Shown one piece after another: positions 1 through 5,943 of a stretch of DNA of 5,943 nucleotides (position 1 is the stretch's first letter; the number at the start of each line of letters is the position of its first letter). The stretch covers positions 1 to 5,943 of the IMG/VR virus record IMGVR_UViG_2713897140_000009; one strand, given 5' to 3'. Made by a program: the position numbers and the translations under genes. The stretch comes from a virus. Its lineage: Duplodnaviria > Heunggongvirae > Uroviricota > Caudoviricetes. The notes beneath the pieces were generated by a model that saw nothing but the letters and a program-made list of their open reading frames with translations, ran no database searches and was not told the DNA's origin.

Positions 1-20
1 GCCCTGGAAATACCCCACAG

Positions 21-58
21 CCCCGAAAAAGAGCCAGTCAGTTGCTTAACTGACTGGC
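21..58 (-). terminator. Rho-independent terminator-like hairpin
   Basis: Perfect 11-bp stem GCCAGTCAGTT/AACTGACTGGC (33-43/48-58) with loop GCTT; on the minus strand the stem is followed by TCTTTTTC (complement of 24-31). Confidence 0.4.
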
Positions 59-240
59 ATTAACCGTAAGGGTTGGTTTTTTCTTGGCACGAGAGTATTC
101 AAAACGCGCCAATAACTACTTGATTTAATTGAAGTCGAAAATTTTAAGTCAAAAATCGTATAGCTTAACGTGTAGCTAAAAATGTTTGCTGCAAAAGTAT
201 ACAATTTTAACCGTTATGACTCCCTGTTATCCGCTATCAA

Positions 241-408
241 GCTGGTGGATGATCACTGATAACTCGTATGGGAATCCCCATATCGGCATCATGCCCATGC
301 CATAACAAAAACCCCATATTCGTGGGTTTTCTGTGTTGTGGCTATTCTGCCGTTGCCGTGCTGGTGGATATTTCCGGTATGTGGCTCACCATATCGGCAT
401 CATGCCCA
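241..408. repeat. Imperfect ~120-bp tandem duplication: GCTGGTGGAT (241-250, 360-369) each followed by the 20-bp repeat CCATATCGGCATCATGCCCA (278-297, 389-408)
   Basis: Exact 20-bp direct repeat and exact 10-bp direct repeat read directly from the sequence; spacing between the 10-mer and 20-mer differs between copies (27 vs 19 nt). Confidence 0.6.
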
Positions 409-626
409 CCAGCGTGATTGGTTGCTGGTGGGCTGCATCACCATCATGGTGATGATGCAGTGAATGTAAGGATTACTTAGGTTAGGGGCGTAACTCATTG
501 TCATTTTTTGAGCAGACCGGGAATCTCCGGTTTGGTTACTCTGTAACCAAGTCAATTTTATTTACTCTGTTGTGAGGGACTATAAGTTCTGCGCAAATTT
601 CCCCGGTTTCCTCAAATTGAGTTTCT

Positions 627-762
627 CGAAAATATCAGCGGGTTAGCGATTAAGCTGGCGAGTAATTAAACTGCGAAAATTTCGTAGTTTGTGACTATCT
701 GAAAGATAGTCGGTTGTTCCGACCTCAGCCATTGGCGGTCTCCGAAAATATCAACGGGTTAG
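627..762. repeat. Direct repeat pair CGAAAATATCA(G/A)CGGGTTAG (627-645 and 743-762), each containing an IHF-consensus-like core
   Basis: Two 19/20-nt matching copies 116 bp apart. Copy 2 contains TATCAACGGGTTA, matching the IHF consensus WATCAANNNNTTR exactly; copy 1 has one mismatch. Confidence 0.45.
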
Positions 763-768
763 GCCATC

Positions 769-808
769 GTGCAAATTTGCACTCTGCCAGCCAACGCAAT
801 TTTGCGTT
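769..808. promoter_or_regulatory. Two adjacent perfect palindromes with a shared core: GTGCAAATTTGCAC (769-782) and AACGCAATTTTGCGTT (793-808); candidate tandem operator
   Basis: Perfect 14-bp and 16-bp palindromes, centres about 25 bp apart, sharing a GCAA-(A/T-tract)-TTGC core. Two perfect palindromes of this length so close together are unlikely by chance. The binding protein is unknown. Confidence 0.4.
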
Positions 809-1027
809 ATCAGTCCTCAGATTTGAGGGATGTAGCCAGCTTTTCCCCCAATAGGGGGATTATCCAGTTACCGACGGTTTAACCGTCTGTGCCAGCACAA
901 CGAAAGAATTTGCGGGTAGCTTTAAACTACTTACAACATCCAATCTTACAGGCCGTGCCTTTCTAACTTTTTGCAATGTAATAAGTCAGGTAGCGCTATG
1001 CGTTCCACCGTGTACACCGCGTTCCGT

Positions 1028-1052
1028 AAAAACCACAGATTCGTGGTTTTCC
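1028..1052 (-). terminator. Terminator-like hairpin immediately after the Nu1-like ORF
   Basis: Stem AAAACCAC/GTGGTTTT with a 6-nt loop, located 15 nt past the stop at 1067-1069; the U-tract is partly inside the stem, so efficiency is uncertain. Confidence 0.35.
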
Positions 1053-1066
1053 TGAATATCATGAAT

Positions 1067-1451
1067 CTACCGCCGCAACCGTTCCGGCTTCTTCCACTGG
1101 TAAGTATTTTTCATGCTCTCCCTCCGTTGTTGAGAACGGCGACGGTATGCCAGCAACTCAAGGACTCTGGTTCGTATGTTGCGCATATCCACGCCGTTAA
1201 GCTCAATACCGTCACGGCGCATAACCTCAGCAACAACACGCGCATAGTTTTCGGCTGTCACGCTGTCCGGCTGCGTGGCCACCTGTTTGCCTGTTGCCTG
1301 ACTGATTCCGGTAATACGGCGGATTACTTTCAGTAGTTCGGCGTCGGTCATGGTTATGGTCTCCATAGTGATGGGGGAACAATTTCTGTAATCTGCGAAG
1401 CTGGCGATCGGTCAGACTCAAATGCCTGGCAACTTCAGTCTGAGTAGCCAC
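1067..1451 (-). CDS. Nu1-like (small terminase / Rpp-like) HTH protein, apparently frameshifted; would be 127 aa if the C5 run at 1373-1377 were C4
   Basis: GTG start at 1451 preceded by GAGGTG at a 5-6 nt spacing. N-terminus VATQTEVARHLSLTDRQLRRLQKL resembles the Nu1 winged-HTH (MEVNKKQLADIFGASIRTIQNWQ) and sits about 210 nt past cosN, as Nu1 does in lambda. That frame degenerates into low-complexity sequence after about 28 codons, while a protein-like reading frame (track ORF 1067..1366) continues in a different frame. A 1-nt change in the C5 homopolymer joins them. Confidence 0.5.
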
Positions 1452-1526
1452 TGTTCACCTCGCCAAAAAATCTCCCCTCATGCGTTTTAAACATGCATCT
1501 TGCGAACAACTTTATGAAACGCGGCA

Positions 1527-1706
1527 TATATGTCCGGTTTGAGTGTTCAATTTTTGCGCATGTCCGGTTCACGGAAAGTGAATTTTTATATTTTTCAAAT
1601 AGTTAACTCCCAGAAAAACCGGACATGGTTTCCGAAAAATTTTCATAAATAGTGAAATTCTGCGCCGCTCCCGCCCCGTAACGGGTCCATATGCCGGAAA
1701 GGACCC
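1527..1706 (-). other. Lambda-type cos site: cosQ (1694-1706), cosN region (1662-1680), conserved cosN-proximal block (1633-1656), and three ATGTCCGGTT repeats in R-site positions (1530-1539, 1560-1569; inverted copy 1617-1626)
   Basis: Minus strand reads ACGGGTCCTTTCCGG-N14-ACGGGGCGGGAGCGGCGCAGAATTTCACTATTTATGAAAATTTTTCGG, against my recall of lambda ACGGGTCCTTTCCGG-N14-ACGGGGCGGCGACCTCGCGGGTTTTCGCTATTTATGAAAATTTTCCGG. cosQ and the cosQ-cosN spacing are identical; the 12-nt cohesive-end position reads GGGCGGGAGCGG versus lambda GGGCGGCGACCT. The three 10-bp repeats (two direct, one inverted, with an AT-rich spacer) occupy the place of lambda R3/R2/R1 but differ in sequence. Confidence 0.6.
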
Positions 1707-1708
1707 GT

Positions 1709-1731
1709 AAAAAAAGCCGGATTTCTCCGGC
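1709..1731 (-). terminator. Rho-independent terminator of the capsid cassette
   Basis: Minus strand GCCGGAGAAATCCGGC followed by TTTTTTT, starting 5 nt past the stop of the 137-aa ORF. Confidence 0.65.
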
Positions 1732-1736
1732 CTGTC

Positions 1737-2150
1737 TCAGATGGTTTTCAGTATGCGATCGATGTCGCCGTCATCGCCCGGGTTTCTGCCATCGTATGCC
1801 ATGCCAGCTGATACGGCTTTCGGGCTGTGTATGTCCATAAAGTTTTCAAAGGCTGCGGTAAGCTCTGGTGCAACCTTCTGGCGTTCCTGCTCTATGGTCA
1901 TGCTAAGAATGCTTTTAGCCGTACCAACATCGATACAAGGCACGTTTGCCATTGCACGTAACAGCGGCTGATAGTCGCCAGATTCATCAAGCGCCATAAT
2001 CGCATCAGCGCGCGGCTTGTCCTGCTCTTCCAGTTTGTTAAGTTGATATATGGCCTCGTAGGTTGATAACCCTCTGTCAGCCATTGCCCGCGCTTCGGCT
2101 TTAAATTTACTCGCCAGCGGTAGCGCCATGATGCTTTCATTCGTTGCCAT
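1737..2150 (-). CDS. Hypothetical 137-aa protein, last gene of the capsid cassette
   Basis: ATG at 2150 with AGGGGGAA 4-5 nt upstream, starting 13 nt after the gpD-like stop, followed by a terminator. Protein-like composition; I do not recognise the family. Its position and size are similar to lambda FI, but no sequence similarity is seen. Confidence 0.6.
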   Translation of the reverse strand: MATNESIMALPLASKFKAEARAMADRGLSTYEAIYQLNKLEEQDKPRADAIMALDESGDYQPLLRAMANVPCIDVGTAKSILSMTIEQERQKVAPELTAAFENFMDIHSPKAVSAGMAYDGRNPGDDGDIDRILKTI

Positions 2151-2162
2151 CGTTCCCCCTGC

Positions 2163-2498
2163 TTATCGGGCCAGCGGCTGAACGGATACGCCAGAACCCG
2201 TAAAGGCGGCGCATTTTTTCGCATCGGTGTCGACGCTCTCAGGCCAGTTAACGGCGGCAATATTGAATATCCCCGTCTTGTAACACTGTGCTGATTTCTG
2301 CTTTGACGTGTCCACGGGGTACGCCGTCAGATAAACAGCCTTGCCAGATTCCTGACCATCCCACGCCTTAAACTCGCCATTGTCCGCCAGCATCAGCGGG
2401 GTAAATTCCTGAATAACGCCAGCATCAGCGGCAAAATGTACCAGCGTCGTGGCGACCTGCTGACTGCCTGCAAATAACTCAACATATGGAGTGCCCAT
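2163..2498 (-). CDS. Head decoration protein, lambda gpD-like (111 aa)
   Basis: TPLMLADNGEFKAWDG, YKTGIFNIAAVNWPE and KKCAAFTGSGVSV align with lambda gpD TPLMLDTSSRKLVAWDG, YKSGTFRYEDVLWPE and KKRTAFAGTAISIV. Same length class; GGGAGA Shine-Dalgarno 6 nt upstream of the ATG. Confidence 0.85.
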   Translation of the reverse strand: MGTPYVELFAGSQQVATTLVHFAADAGVIQEFTPLMLADNGEFKAWDGQESGKAVYLTAYPVDTSKQKSAQCYKTGIFNIAAVNWPESVDTDAKKCAAFTGSGVSVQPLAR

Positions 2499-2509
2499 AG
2501 AATCTCCCG

Positions 2510-3565
2510 TTAACCAATTTTGACGGTAACAAATTTGCGAATATCTGCCGGAACCGGCTGCGGTGCGCTGTGCGTCTGCACGTACTCAATCGCCGGATCG
2601 CCGTCCTCAATCCAGTTTTTCGGGTAAAACATGTTTTGCGTTGCGCCCGTTCTTACTGCGTCCTGATCCATAATCGCACCATAGGCCACCAGCCCTTTAT
2701 TGTTGGTGTTGCCCAGGACAAGCAAATCAGGCTCAAGGAAATATTTTTCGGTGCCGTCGCTGTCGGCGTATTTGCCGGAATAGACGATAAGGGCAATATC
2801 GCCCAGATAGCCTTTAAAGCTCACCACTTCGCCCAGGTTTTTACACGCCAGCTCTGCGGCGGATTCTGAACCACGGGAAAGATCGTACAGCTCGCGGAAT
2901 TTTTTAAAGCTGCGTAACGTTCGCCATACCTCAGCGCCCATAATCATGACGTTGGCGGGGCAGCTGGCCTGTTCGGCGTATAGCTCGATGTCATCTGTCG
3001 GATCATGCGTCTCTTTATTCTGCTCAGACCATTTTTTTCCTGGCCCCTGATGGACAATGCAGTTTGCCGGCATATTCCAGTCGATTTCATAGCGTTCTAT
3101 GCCTTCGCCTTCAATGATGTTTTTTCCGGTCGTGACCGCATTCACTGCCAGCCATTCCACACGCGCTTTAATGGCGTTTATCTGGCGGCGCATGTTGCCA
3201 GTAATGAGGCGCATACGTCGCCAGGTGGGGTCGTTAAGCTGTGCCGGATCTTCTCCAGCCATGCGCATAATGGTTTTTGATGGATCGATTTCGTGCTTTG
3301 GCTTCATGTAGCCGGGGCGGATAGTGCTTGTTTCGTACCCTTTATCGCGCTGAACCTGGCTACCCACCATAGGCGAACAAAACGCCGACATGGTGACTTC
3401 TTCAATATCCAGGGTATCCAGCATGATGTCCTGCGTGTTGAAGGTCGCCACGTTCGGAAAAAACAGCGACGTAAACAGCGGACTGAATCTAAAATCCGGA
3501 ACATCCTGCCGATTCAGGTACGCGAAAAGCTGGTTAGTGTTAAGAGCCGTTGCTTTACCTGCCAT
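2510..3565 (-). CDS. Major capsid protein, lambda gpE-like (351 aa)
   Basis: Multiple co-linear blocks shared with lambda gpE: FRFSPLFTSLFF vs FKFDPLFLRLFF; PGYMKPKHEIDP vs PGYVKPKHEVNP; DPTDDIELYA vs DPTDDIEAYA; YPKNWIEDGDPA vs YPKNWVTTGDPA; similar length (351 vs 341 aa). Confidence 0.92.
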   Translation of the reverse strand: MAGKATALNTNQLFAYLNRQDVPDFRFSPLFTSLFFPNVATFNTQDIMLDTLDIEEVTMSAFCSPMVGSQVQRDKGYETSTIRPGYMKPKHEIDPSKTIMRMAGEDPAQLNDPTWRRMRLITGNMRRQINAIKARVEWLAVNAVTTGKNIIEGEGIERYEIDWNMPANCIVHQGPGKKWSEQNKETHDPTDDIELYAEQASCPANVMIMGAEVWRTLRSFKKFRELYDLSRGSESAAELACKNLGEVVSFKGYLGDIALIVYSGKYADSDGTEKYFLEPDLLVLGNTNNKGLVAYGAIMDQDAVRTGATQNMFYPKNWIEDGDPAIEYVQTHSAPQPVPADIRKFVTVKIG

Positions 3566-3771
3566 TATTCACCCCCGTGAACCTGATTCATGCCCAACGC
3601 CGCACGTAAATAGGCGCGCACCTGCCAGCCTGTTGACGGCTCAACCATTGCCAGCGGATCAAGTCCTGCCGCAATGCTCGCTTTTACGTTCTGCTGGTGG
3701 CGTTCCTTGAGTGCCTCCACGATGTCGGGGCTTATGTAGACTGTAACCCCACCTTTTTTCTCTTCTGCCAT
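3565..3771 (-). CDS. Small hypothetical protein (68 aa from the ATG at 3771; track ORF extends to 3804), translationally coupled to the capsid gene
   Basis: The ATG at 3771 has AAGAGGAA about 9 nt upstream, whereas the upstream ATG at 3804 has no Shine-Dalgarno. Its TAA stop overlaps the gpE-like ATG (TAATG). Family not recognised. Confidence 0.5.
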   Translation of the reverse strand: MAEEKKGGVTVYISPDIVEALKERHQQNVKASIAAGLDPLAMVEPSTGWQVRAYLRAALGMNQVHGGE

Positions 3772-3804
3772 AGTCAGAAATTCCTCTTTGACGTTAAAAA
3801 TCAT

Positions 3805-3855
3805 AACTGGATGTTCATCCAGTTATGATTATAATCATGATTTCATATTTCGCAA
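3805..3855 (-). promoter_or_regulatory. Candidate sigma70 promoter of the capsid cassette (-35 TTGCGA at 3850-3855, 16-nt spacer, -10 TATAAT at 3828-3833) overlapping two dyad operators
   Basis: A perfect TATAAT lies inside the perfect 14-bp palindrome ATGATTATAATCAT (3825-3838). Immediately downstream is the dyad AACTGGATG-N2-CATCCAGTT (3805-3824). Prediction by eye only. Confidence 0.35.
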
Positions 3856-3930
3856 TAATATCGATCCATGTTGCAAATTATGAAATGATTTCCGGAAACA
3901 GTAGTCACCATGCTGTTAACCTCATATATG

Positions 3931-3974
3931 AAAAAGCCCGCTAAGTTTGCCTCCTGTACTTATCGGGCTTTTTT
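3931..3974. terminator. Bidirectional terminator-like hairpin (A5 - interrupted 10-bp stem - T6)
   Basis: AAAAAGCCCGCTAAGT...ACTTATCGGGCTTTTTT: stem flanked by an A-run on one side and a T-run on the other, so it could terminate on either strand. Confidence 0.35.
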
Positions 3975-4020
3975 ATCTGCCTGCAAAGGTGTCGAACAAA
4001 AAAACAATCAAAATCGACAC

Positions 4021-4064
4021 CATAAAAATAAAACCACTGTAATATCAATCCATTACAGTAGTGG
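4021..4064 (-). terminator. Terminator-like hairpin (second in tandem after the SSB gene)
   Basis: 8-bp stem ACTGTAAT/ATTACAGT (4036-4043/4052-4059) with an 8-nt loop; on the minus strand it is followed by TTTTATTTTTAT. Confidence 0.35.
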
Positions 4065-4101
4065 TGATGACGAATGAAATTTCAAAAACTAGCCTTTTTC
4101 C

Positions 4102-4145
4102 GCGCCGCTCCCGCCCCGTGGCAGGTCACTACACCGGGAGGACCC
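4102..4145 (-). other. Second cosQ/cosN-like segment, lacking the ATGTCCGGTT R-repeats
   Basis: The 18-mer GCGCCGCTCCCGCCCCGT (4102-4119) is identical to 1662-1679. It is followed after the same 14-nt spacing by a slightly degenerate cosQ (minus strand GGGTCCTCCCGG, 4134-4145). The surrounding ~75 bp is about 80% identical to 1660-1735. Confidence 0.45.
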
Positions 4146-4147
4146 AT

Positions 4148-4169
4148 AAAAAAGCCGGATTGCTCCGGC
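4148..4169 (-). terminator. Rho-independent terminator after the SSB gene
   Basis: Minus strand GCCGGAGCAATCCGGC followed by TTTTTT; a paralog of the terminator at 1709-1731. Confidence 0.6.
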
Positions 4170-4185
4170 TTCTGTTACTCGTTGC

Positions 4186-4608
4186 TTAAAACGGTATGTT
4201 ATCCCCGTACGGATCATCATTTCCCGCCTGTTGTTTTGCTCTGCTCAGTGCATCAGCAGCCTGCCCCTGTTGGCCTTTTTTGCCGCCCGGTCGCGCCGTT
4301 CTCGCACTGATTACGCTGTCTGCGATAACCTGCCAGCCCTGCCGCATTTCCCCGTTCTGTCCGGTCCACTGGCTCACCTGCATGTTACCCGCCACGCTCA
4401 GGGGTTCACCCTTGCGGTGCTTTGCCAGTGCTTCGGCCTGTCTGCCAAACGCCAGGACGGATAACCACATCGTCGCCGTTCCGTCATCGGCCTGGCTGCA
4501 CGGCAGGGGAACCGCCATACTCGCCATCGCCATTTGTGTCCCTTTGCTGGTGGTCTTTAACTGCGGGTCAGCCACCAGCCGCCCGTAAGCTGCTATCTGT
4601 GCTGTCAT
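4186..4608 (-). CDS. ssb: Single-stranded DNA-binding protein (SSB-like, 140 aa) with a C-terminal acidic IPF tail
   Basis: FGRQAEALAKHRKGEPLSVAGNMQVSQWTGQNGEMRQGWQVIA aligns with E. coli SSB [43 protein letters not shown]. Gly/Gln-rich linker and C-terminal DDPYGDNIPF (E. coli DDDIPF). Its ATG overlaps the upstream stop (ATGA). Confidence 0.75.
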   Translation of the reverse strand: MTAQIAAYGRLVADPQLKTTSKGTQMAMASMAVPLPCSQADDGTATMWLSVLAFGRQAEALAKHRKGEPLSVAGNMQVSQWTGQNGEMRQGWQVIADSVISARTARPGGKKGQQGQAADALSRAKQQAGNDDPYGDNIPF

Positions 4609-4862
4609 GCTGTCTGCTCTCCGGTTTTAACGTTGATGGTTGTCACCTGTTCCGCTTCGGCAATCTCCCGTTCTGTCAGCGTGGCAAAGTTTGCTGCCGC
4701 CGTGGTCATGAATGCGCTTATCAGTTCAGGATGTGCTTTCGCGTATCCTTCTCCCGCGTTGCGGTCGATGATTTTTATCGCCACCCTCAGCCAGTGCTCT
4801 GTAAGGTCAATGGCGCGGTTATGTTGCTTCTTCTGATTGTTAAGTTTTCCTGATGTGTGCAT
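4605..4862 (-). CDS. Hypothetical 85-aa protein between the origin and the SSB gene
   Basis: ATG at 4862 with GAGGGGGG about 11 nt upstream; stop overlaps the SSB start (ATGA), suggesting translational coupling. Family not recognised. Confidence 0.5.
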   Translation of the reverse strand: MHTSGKLNNQKKQHNRAIDLTEHWLRVAIKIIDRNAGEGYAKAHPELISAFMTTAAANFATLTEREIAEAEQVTTINVKTGEQTA

Positions 4863-4911
4863 TTTTGTTTTTACCCCCCTCGTTTAAAAAGTTTTGGAGA
4901 TACCCCCACCT

Positions 4912-5138
4912 TGTCTACCTTATCTACCTGGTGGATGCTCAGGCCAGTAATGACGCGGGTTTTATGGTGGTAGACAGTAAAAAATCTCTGTCTACCTGAT
5001 GTCTACCCATCCCTCCGACTGGCTACAAAAACAGGTAGACAAGGTAGACAGCTTGTAGACAGTAAAAAAAAGCTGTCTACCTAAATTAATACACTGAATT
5101 AAAACAACTTTTATGTAATCAGGTAGACAAGGTAGACA
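4912..5138. repeat. Iteron-type replication origin: 11 copies of the 8-bp iteron GGTAGACA/TGTCTACC in both orientations, interspersed with A-tracts
   Basis: TGTCTACC at 4912, 4989, 5000, 5074 and a variant at 4921; GGTAGACA at 4969, 5034, 5043, 5122, 5131 and a variant at 5055. Tandem pairs have a 9-bp period. AGGTAGACAAGGTAGACAG occurs twice (5032-5050, 5120-5138). A-rich tracts at 4976-4984 and 5062-5070 could act as an unwinding element. Lies directly downstream of the rep ORF. Confidence 0.65.
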
Positions 5139-5152
5139 GCAATTGCCAAAAA

Positions 5153-5878
5153 TTATAAAAACGCGTCGCAATCGTCGGTTGTTATTGCGTTAGTCTGCGT
5201 CACTCCATTAATTTTTCGCGTAATATATTCATGTCCGTAAACTTTTGCGGCTGGCTTCATGGCCTTGCCAAAGTCATTTACGTTTAGTGGTTTGGTTCTG
5301 CCTGCGTATGCCATAAACGCCAGATAGACGCGGTAAAGGCTGTTTCTGGTCGTGTACTTCACGGAATCGCCACCGCCACCCATCATCAGGCCACGTGCTT
5401 CCTCCAGAAAATTCAGGAACTGGCAAAACTCAATAACCGGATCCGTTTGCTGCTTTATCGCCAGTGCTTCATCACCGTCACGCTGTTCCAGTAGTAAAGC
5501 CCGCGCCTTTTCAGGGTCTGCAAAGTTCGCCAGTAATCGGCGGATAATGACGGGGATTTCAGCCGCAATCTTTTCCGGTAGTTCCCTGTCTTTTTCGGCC
5601 TCGTTGACGATATTGTCGAAACGGAAAATCACGCGACGACGTGCCACGCCTCCGGCCCGTTCGGTGAATATCATCGGATTGTTATTGGTTGCCAGCACCA
5701 CCGCCCTGATTACCGCCGTAAAACGCTTTTCATATTTCGGGTTAATTTCCACGGGGTCGCCGCCCGTGATTTTCTTGATGCCCGTTCCTTCGCCTGTATA
5801 TTTCGGCTGGTCTGCCAGGACGATAAGACGACTCCCGACAACCTGTGCACGCCCACCAGCATCATCAAGCGATGTCAT
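5153..5878 (-). CDS. Replication protein resembling the C-terminal region of P4-family (D5-like) primase/SF3 helicases; no Walker A in this ORF
   Basis: GSRLIVLADQ (Walker-B-like region), KKITGGDPV, VVLATNNNP (SF3 motif-C-like TNNxP), RRRVIFRFDN and ELPEKIAAEIPVII match the conserved post-Walker-A pattern of P4 alpha-type proteins as I recall it. No GxxxxGK[ST] motif is present. The ATG overlaps the stop of the upstream ORF (ATGA). Confidence 0.6.
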   Translation of the reverse strand: MTSLDDAGGRAQVVGSRLIVLADQPKYTGEGTGIKKITGGDPVEINPKYEKRFTAVIRAVVLATNNNPMIFTERAGGVARRRVIFRFDNIVNEAEKDRELPEKIAAEIPVIIRRLLANFADPEKARALLLEQRDGDEALAIKQQTDPVIEFCQFLNFLEEARGLMMGGGGDSVKYTTRNSLYRVYLAFMAYAGRTKPLNVNDFGKAMKPAAKVYGHEYITRKINGVTQTNAITTDDCDAFL

Positions 5879-5943
5879 CTCAGCGCTGATATGACTTTCC
5901 GTGTCAAACCGGAATCTCTAATTTTGACGATTTTCTTTTTAGG
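5875..5943 (-). CDS. 3' end of an upstream ORF continuing beyond the window (C-terminus ...PKKKIVKIRDSGLTRKVISALR)
   Basis: The only minus-strand frame open to the window edge; its TGA overlaps the rep ATG. Too short to identify. Confidence 0.3.
   Translation of the reverse strand, partial: PKKKIVKIRDSGLTRKVISALR

Follow-up and report, generated by a model that had tools for sequence, protein, structure and literature searches.

A phage terS remnant and a separate intact gene beside the cos site of an EcCICFT073-type island of Escherichia coli: a probable scar of recombination with a helper prophage

The window, a 5,943-nucleotide stretch of DNA covering positions 1 to 5,943 of the IMG/VR virus record IMGVR_UViG_2713897140_000009, contains next to a lambda-like cos site a locus that an earlier note, made from the letters alone, had described as one Nu1-like gene broken at a homopolymer. 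Two unrelated pieces of coding DNA meet there: the first 24 codons of a phage terS, and an intact island gene of 94 codons. Their meeting is very probably a recombination scar, formed when a cos patch from a helper prophage replaced the cosB/TerS module of the island. The coordinates of the features on which this reading rests are collected in Table 1.

The window corresponds to the right arm of a phage-inducible chromosomal island (PICI) of E. coli of the EcCICFT073 type, and the satellite context proposed for it was therefore correct. Positions 80-5943 are about 99.9% identical to a chromosomal island beside yejO in three complete E. coli genomes, in which the flanks supply an integrase, a small HTH regulator, Icd-like genes and the remaining part of the primase. 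Along the island the primase is followed by SSB, a capsid module like lambda E/D, cos and, last, the 94-aa gene; the Pfam names found in the window are Phage_cap_E, HDPD, SSB and D5. The features by which EcCICFT073-type cos PICIs are recognized, namely integrase, regulator, primase/ori, lambda-like cosQ and cosN, and capsid and decoration homologues, were all found. Island copies in the complete genomes are decaying, with IS110 in the primase, a frameshifted icd and, in locus L001, a truncated integrase; an intact 584-aa primase is found in some island copies.

Several other features of this arm were recorded. The primase ORF of the window is truncated at about 5887 (5887-5943), where two of the three near-identical genomes have an IS110-family insertion; the intact 584-aa form is present in FDAARGOS_943. 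Adjoining the primase at 4900-5140 is an array of iterons with GGTAGACA-type repeats in both orientations, presumed to be the island ori; one unit of about 57 nt (4998-5054) is present here that the three complete genomes lack. A perfect 15-nt palindrome, AATCATAACTGGATG / CATCCAGTTATGATT, lies at 3799-3830 directly upstream of the capsid operon and is likely a regulator-binding site. Past the decoration gene, a 137-aa minus-strand ORF (1737-2150) matches phrog_1999 and, more weakly, the C-terminal part of the head-maturation-protease family phrog_53 (494-567 of 583), which suggests an island-encoded Nu3-like scaffold protein; one genome annotates it as 'head-tail connector'. The assembly GCA_000167915.2 holds two copies of the island arm (L017, L018), one adjoining clpS and the other IS4 and gat genes. 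They differ by one base in 4.9 kb, and such near-identity within one genome indicates recent duplication, re-integration or gene conversion.

On the minus strand, the GTG at 1451-1449 is preceded by GAGGTG, and the good Shine-Dalgarno sequence ascribed to this start is indeed present. From it an ORF of 74 codons, opening MATQTEVARHLSLTDRQLRRLQKL, extends as far as 1227. The same strand has another ORF, in the +1 frame, whose stop lies at 1067; it has 99 residues if counted from ATG 1366 or 94 if counted from ATG 1351. When one C is deleted from the minus-strand C5 run (plus-strand GGGGG, 1373-1377), a single ORF of 127 codons results, as had been claimed. Since the gain or loss of one or two bases is enough to repair any out-of-frame junction, this reconstruction has no weight by itself. 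The 74-codon ORF has family matches confined to residues 1-24 and is probably meaningless; neither it nor the 99-aa ORF was present when looked up exactly in a collection of 15 billion proteins.

The segment containing C5 is best read, from the alignments on its two sides, as a recombination or deletion junction. Phage homology begins at 1380 and homology to the related island L006 stops at 1377, and at the breakpoint five nucleotides, TTCCC, are assignable to neither parent. The 80 bases around C5 are identical in the three complete genomes, and the 28-nt junction CAGAAATTGTTCCCCCATCACTATGGAG recurs unchanged in another ten assemblies whose 94-aa protein is exactly this one, so that C5 is found in 14/14 loci, the window included. 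Up to 16 positions separate the cos DNA adjacent to these junctions from that of the window, and the islands occupy at least two chromosomal sites. With C5 invariant against this background, both sequencing error and phase variation, which had been offered as explanations of the run, become very unlikely. A search of JGI metagenomes and GTDB representative genomes for the junction with variable tract length gave zero matches, and thus added no further tract alleles.

Table 1. Features of the cos region and its surroundings (positions are those of the window)
Feature	Position	Strand	Description
94-aa gene, WP_000128610.1	1067..1351	minus	Intact; GGAG 9 nt before ATG 1351; separate CDS in L001-L003
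Hairpin AAAACCAC-N6-GTGGTTTT	1029..1050	minus	After the 94-aa gene stop; -11.2 kcal/mol
Chimeric 74-codon ORF	1227..1451	minus	24-codon remnant plus 50-codon out-of-frame read-through over the start of the 94-aa gene
Junction TTGTTCCCC	1373..1381	minus	Contains C5; phage-type DNA on the high-coordinate side, island-type DNA on the low-coordinate side
terS remnant	1380..1451	minus	GTG and codons 1-24 (VATQTEVARHLSLTDRQLRRLQKL) of a phage Nu1-family terS; 145 codons gone
Phage-derived patch	1380..1679	minus	cosN right half, cosB, terS ribosome-binding site, terS 5' end
cosB-like region	1530..1626	minus	Three exact AACCGGACAT R-type repeats
AACCGGACAT repeats	1530-1539, 1560-1569, 1617-1626	minus, minus, plus	Layout of lambda R1, R2 and inverted R3
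cosN equivalent GGGCGGGAGCGG, after TACG	1676-1665	minus	Cohesive-end equivalent, from alignment with lambda cos ends
cosQ-like ACGGGTCCTTTCCGG	1708-1694	minus	From alignment with lambda cos ends
Intrinsic terminator	1714..1733	minus	From terminator scan; ends the capsid operon directly upstream of cos
Lambda E-type major capsid, lambda D-type decoration, SSB, and C-terminal part of D5/P4-type primase		minus (all)	From Pfam

The Nu1-like character of the N-terminus was rightly seen. The 24 residues of the stub are identical to residues 1-24 of the 169-aa TerS WP_000235445.1 of prophage L009, a protein that matches Pfam Phage_Nu1 (PF07471) at residues 71-150 and also phrog_57, and whose gene is followed by those for terL, portal, protease, decoration and capsid. 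The frame decays as described, with the correction that identity to TerS ends after codon 24 rather than about codon 28: past CAGAAA(T/C)TG the window and the phage TerS have nothing in common, and the similarity stops abruptly. Against protein families the stub matches phrog_57 at positions 12-34 of 199 and phrog_7289 at positions 2-25 of 91. The NCBI pipeline, PGAP, labels the 72-nt stub a partial pseudogene and the 94-aa ORF a separate gene in L001-L003. The stub is the 5' end of a phage terS and most likely non-functional. It retains a good ribosome-binding site, and for that reason some peptide may be made from it.

The homology to phage DNA extends well beyond the stub. Over the whole patch the window is 96% identical to the lambdoid prophages L009, L024, L025 and L026, rising to 99.4% over 1380-1560, and another island allele, L011, is identical to L009 at 298/300 positions. 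Within the patch, 11/12 of the differences between the window and the prophage fall at 1571-1615, between R2 and R3, which is the place of the IHF site in lambda. Other island alleles also differ between R2 and R3, and L011 has the phage version there. This clustering, together with the phage-type sequence of L011, suggests repeated small exchanges within cosB.

When aligned with lambda cos, the minus strand reads ACGGGTCCTTTCCGG ... GTTACG/GGGCGGGAGCGG ... CTATTTATGAAAATTTT. The remnant thus lies downstream of lambda-like cosQ, cosN and cosB, and its position relative to cosN is that of Nu1, as the earlier note had it. Three R repeats were reached by 0/200 shuffles. Phages L009 and L010 and island L008 share this triad, spaced identically; islands with a TerS-like gene of their own (L004-L007, L021) lack it, as does the lambda sequence that was compared (L022-L023). 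The repeats are exact in most island alleles, with a variable spacer. The cos itself is a mosaic, the cosQ side being island-type and the segment from the right half of cosN through terS codon 24 phage-type, which points to one crossover in the conserved cosN core and the other at the C run. Past the SSB terminator, at 4098-4175, a cosQ/cosN-like sequence occurs once more, oriented as the main cos is and 91.7% identical to the cosQ-cosN of prophage L009; this copy has no cosB repeats. The two copies bracket the capsid module.

The frame that continues to 1067 is real, as reported, and belongs to another gene. Residues 1-94 of its product match phrog_1561 end to end (1-93/93, E=1.2e-50), and the gene has its own ATG in all relatives; the 986 close homologues start at MT(E/D). 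The alternative in-frame ATG 1366 is without a ribosome-binding site. The gene stands alone in island L008, and in L004-L007 and L021 it stands alone downstream of a full TerS-like or DUF1441 gene of 162-194 aa. DNA homology to the related islands ends at window positions 1351-1377. Among relatives, variable sites are distributed over the three codon positions as 26/21/45, with the excess at the third. Comparison of orthologous loci, which had been proposed as a check on a single gene, accordingly shows a stand-alone gene in relatives and no fused protein. Homologues of 122-130 aa do occur; their added length comes from gene calls that continue through an inverted cos-like element, not from an HTH fusion.

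That inverted element lies between the TerS-like and 93-aa genes in L004 (6684-6798), L006 (about 5380-5430) and L008 (3328-3400), and is at times translated by gene callers into extra N-terminal residues, MQKLAFFRDAPAPWQGTPQGGPAITME... In related islands inverted cos copies thus lie on both sides of the TerS gene; the inverted element is absent from the window. The 5' end of the 94-aa gene also varies in its number of ATGACC hexamers (MT, MTMT, MTMTMT), as seen in homologues P0051, P0053, P0064, P0081 and P0082, and this tandem repeat (window positions about 1351-1366) alters the N-terminus or the choice of start codon.

The 94-aa family is narrow and enterobacterial: an exhaustive HMMER search of 1.84 billion representatives gave 39 matches, and no informative fusion was among them. 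An AlphaFold2 model of the protein has three helices and is of moderate confidence (pLDDT 72.5). A Foldseek search of this model against the PDB, where Nu1 and RppC-TerS structures are present, returned noise, with no match of E below 0.9, and no function can be assigned to the protein on that basis. Its gene is always at the end of the island, after whatever specificity module is present, from which a role in packaging or interference might be guessed.

With respect to transcription signals, scans of 900-1800 called neither a sigma-70-like promoter nor, past the end of the 94-aa gene, a terminator. The terminator claimed at this place is therefore not called by consensus, while the hairpin is there and is possibly a weak terminator. 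Two similar hairpins of the form AAAACC(C/A)CA-ATTCGTGG-TTTT lie near 306-330 and 1029-1050. Positions 1-1066 contain no ORF longer than 52 aa except one antisense ORF, and of this region 284-1066, some 700-780 nt past the last gene, is conserved non-coding island DNA. Paired direct repeats occur in the non-coding end (266-297/377-408 and 627-646/743-762). Rfam and tRNA scans of the window found nothing.

A prophage with the matching cos is present in the same genomes. When the terS and cos segment of the prophage was compared with 5,426 complete genomes at ≥99% identity, eight had a match. All three complete genomes with the island (3/3) also hold the matching prophage elsewhere on the chromosome, its cos/terS segment being present at 99.6-99.9% identity. 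These three genomes are possibly related, which would weaken the argument from co-occurrence, as it may partly reflect shared ancestry. An IS600 sits in the terL of the co-resident prophage in two of these genomes. A sister lineage has the same design with a different partner: in island L008, with the similar hits H5-H6, the DNA from cosQ through R1 is 98.9% identical to another prophage, L010, and the homology ends exactly at R1. The 660-bp gap that follows in L008 contains no terS or rpp-like ORF. Taken together, the window lineage and L008 indicate that islands without TerS and with a helper-type cosB arose at least twice.

These findings can be joined in the following scheme. Related islands have their own cosB and a complete TerS-like gene in a slot that separates cos from the 94-aa gene, and an inverted second cos usually comes next. 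In the window lineage this slot would have been replaced by some 300 bp copied from a lambdoid helper prophage, with one crossover in the conserved cosN core and the second after terS codon 24, about 26 nt upstream of the 94-aa gene, where C5 is found. In another possible order, a whole phage terS was gained first and most of it lost later. What had appeared to be an N-terminal HTH is therefore the remnant of terS, and the C-terminal frame belongs to an intact gene of its own; the two never formed one gene. The stub would be a by-product of the position of the crossover and is most likely without function. As the island has the helper's own cosB, the TerS-TerL of the helper would recognize island concatemers directly, and the matching prophage would be expected to package them. 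The island would then have no need of its own TerS or of an Rpp adaptor.

Some of the same data would fit another history, in which the junction is a neutral scar in a dead island, cos is unused, and the match with the prophage arose from local recombination or gene conversion between resident elements. IS insertions and pseudogenes in the island copies, the IS in the prophage terL, and the patchy R2-R3 substitutions, which suggest continuing exchange, all fit with this history. It is harder to reconcile with the presence of the same island at two chromosomal sites in one genome with a single difference over 4.9 kb, with the copies that have an intact primase, with the exactness of the three R repeats in most alleles beside a variable spacer, and with an independent lineage, L008, of the same design. 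For the copies in the complete genomes this history is possible; as a general explanation it is unlikely.

A CCC-C quadruplet is slip-prone for +1 frameshifting by tRNA-Pro. It could therefore be proposed that programmed +1 frameshifting there, or phase variation of the tract, produces a fusion of the HTH stub with the 94-aa protein that acts at cosB; a +1 fusion peptide across the junction would contain QKLFPITMETITM. The shift needed is precisely +1 on CCC-C, the stub has kept its start codon and ribosome-binding site, and the junction is the same in all copies. Recent common descent accounts for this last point. The length of the tract is constant over the 14 loci, no stimulator is evident, there is no suitably spaced upstream SD-like sequence, and the CAT codon that follows is not a rare one or a stop. 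The stub supplies 24 residues of a winged HTH (wHTH) that needs about 55 or more (PMC6739421), and the sister lineage L008 is without any stub. Both frameshifting and phase variation, each of which the earlier note had raised, are thus very improbable, and the same applies to the more particular idea that a low-level slip joins the stub, with its part of the helper's DNA-recognition helices, to the 94-aa protein and gives a cosB-directed fusion only in fixed proportion to the unfused form, so that the stub and CCC-C would be no mere scar.

Least credible of all is the original suggestion of a single 127-aa Nu1/Rpp-like satellite gene with a +1C frameshift mutation or a sequencing error in the homopolymer: the removal of one C does join the ORFs and the N-terminus is TerS-like, but C5 recurs in every one of the independent assemblies, the halves match separate families (phrog_57/7289, positions 2-25 only, as against a complete phrog_1561) and come from different parental genomes with a sharp break between them, no 94-aa homologue bears a stub-type N-terminus, the 127-aa (C4) and +2C (C7) fusion proteins are both missing from the 15-billion-protein collection on exact look-up, and the reconstruction has no Pfam or PDB likeness to Nu1 or Rpp beyond its first 24 residues.

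The frameshift question is therefore an ordinary one, concerning a gene remnant already flagged as a partial pseudogene by the NCBI pipeline. Of somewhat more interest is the cos itself. The described E. coli cos PICIs use Rpp to turn the helper terminase to a PICI-specific cosB; the window lineage and the independent sister lineage carry instead a three-repeat cosB that is a near-exact copy of that of a co-resident prophage, and have no TerS or Rpp. If this cos works, enterobacterial satellites could switch helpers by exchanging a cos cassette of about 300 bp, and a cosB match would offer a simple way to assign satellites to their helpers from genome sequence.

Among known systems, the lambda gpNu1-type TerS (PF07471) is the family to which the remnant belongs, in that the stub corresponds to residues 1-24 of a Nu1-family TerS, with the ribosome-binding site and the distance to cosN as in phage. 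A complete wHTH of such a protein has about 55-65 residues, of which residues 1-24 are present here. The stub differs from gpNu1 in the loss of 145 of 169 codons, which includes the wing and the oligomerisation and TerL-binding regions; neither the 127-aa construct nor the 74-aa ORF gave a Pfam match to the latter two or to anything else. No large terminase gene follows, as was correctly noted: no terL is found downstream of the stub as an ORF in the window or as an annotation in the identical loci.

The Rpp proteins (RppA/B/C; PDB 6HLK, 6HN7) are 139-154 aa long and consist of a wHTH, residues 1-64, and a C-terminal coiled-coil helix by which they dimerise (PMC6739421, PMC9026076). They retarget the helper TerS to a PICI-specific cosB that is without R repeats and unlike the phage cosB (PMC6739421, PMC9026076). 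The locus in the window resembles theirs in its island slot directly downstream of cos. Judged by PDB sequence and fold searches and by the published description, nothing in the window matches Rpp in sequence or fold. The lengths here are 74, 94 or 127 aa, and cosB is the phage's own (96-99% identity) rather than PICI-specific. The 127-aa construct and the 94-aa protein matched no Pfam terminase or HTH family; PDB sequence searches with these two, with the DUF1441 protein of L007 and with the phage TerS returned nothing relevant, and in a control lambda Nu1 1-98 recovered 6HN7 and 1J9I. With no fold match for the 94-aa model either, the proposal of an Rpp-like packaging-redirection factor is not upheld.

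The closest relatives of the island as a whole are the EcCICFT073-family cos PICIs of E. coli (Fillol-Salom 2018, PMC6092414; 2019, PMC6739421). EcCICFT073 encodes a capsid homologue, c1499, and a decoration homologue, c1500, and has two cos sites, cos1 and cos2 (PMC6092414). The window shares with this family the primase/ori module, SSB, the lambda E-like capsid and D-like decoration genes, lambda-like cosQ and cosN, two cos-like copies, and a small terminal gene cluster past cos. In the described islands rpp follows cos1, and cosB has no R repeats and is unlike that of the helper (PMC9026076). The window, in contrast, has neither rpp nor terS, and its three-repeat phage cosB is 96-99% identical to that of the co-resident prophage.

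In this respect it is nearer to the SaPIbov5-type satellites, which carry the cos of their helper (cited in PMC6092414, PMC5052747). A patch 96-99% identical to a prophage in the same genome and the absence of a terS or rpp ORF are what is found here. Like these satellites, the window island lacks a terminase gene of its own, and its packaging specificity may come from a copy of the helper cos. The window is distinguished by a Gram-negative host, a lambda-type cos, a cosB with R repeats, and capsid and decoration genes of its own.
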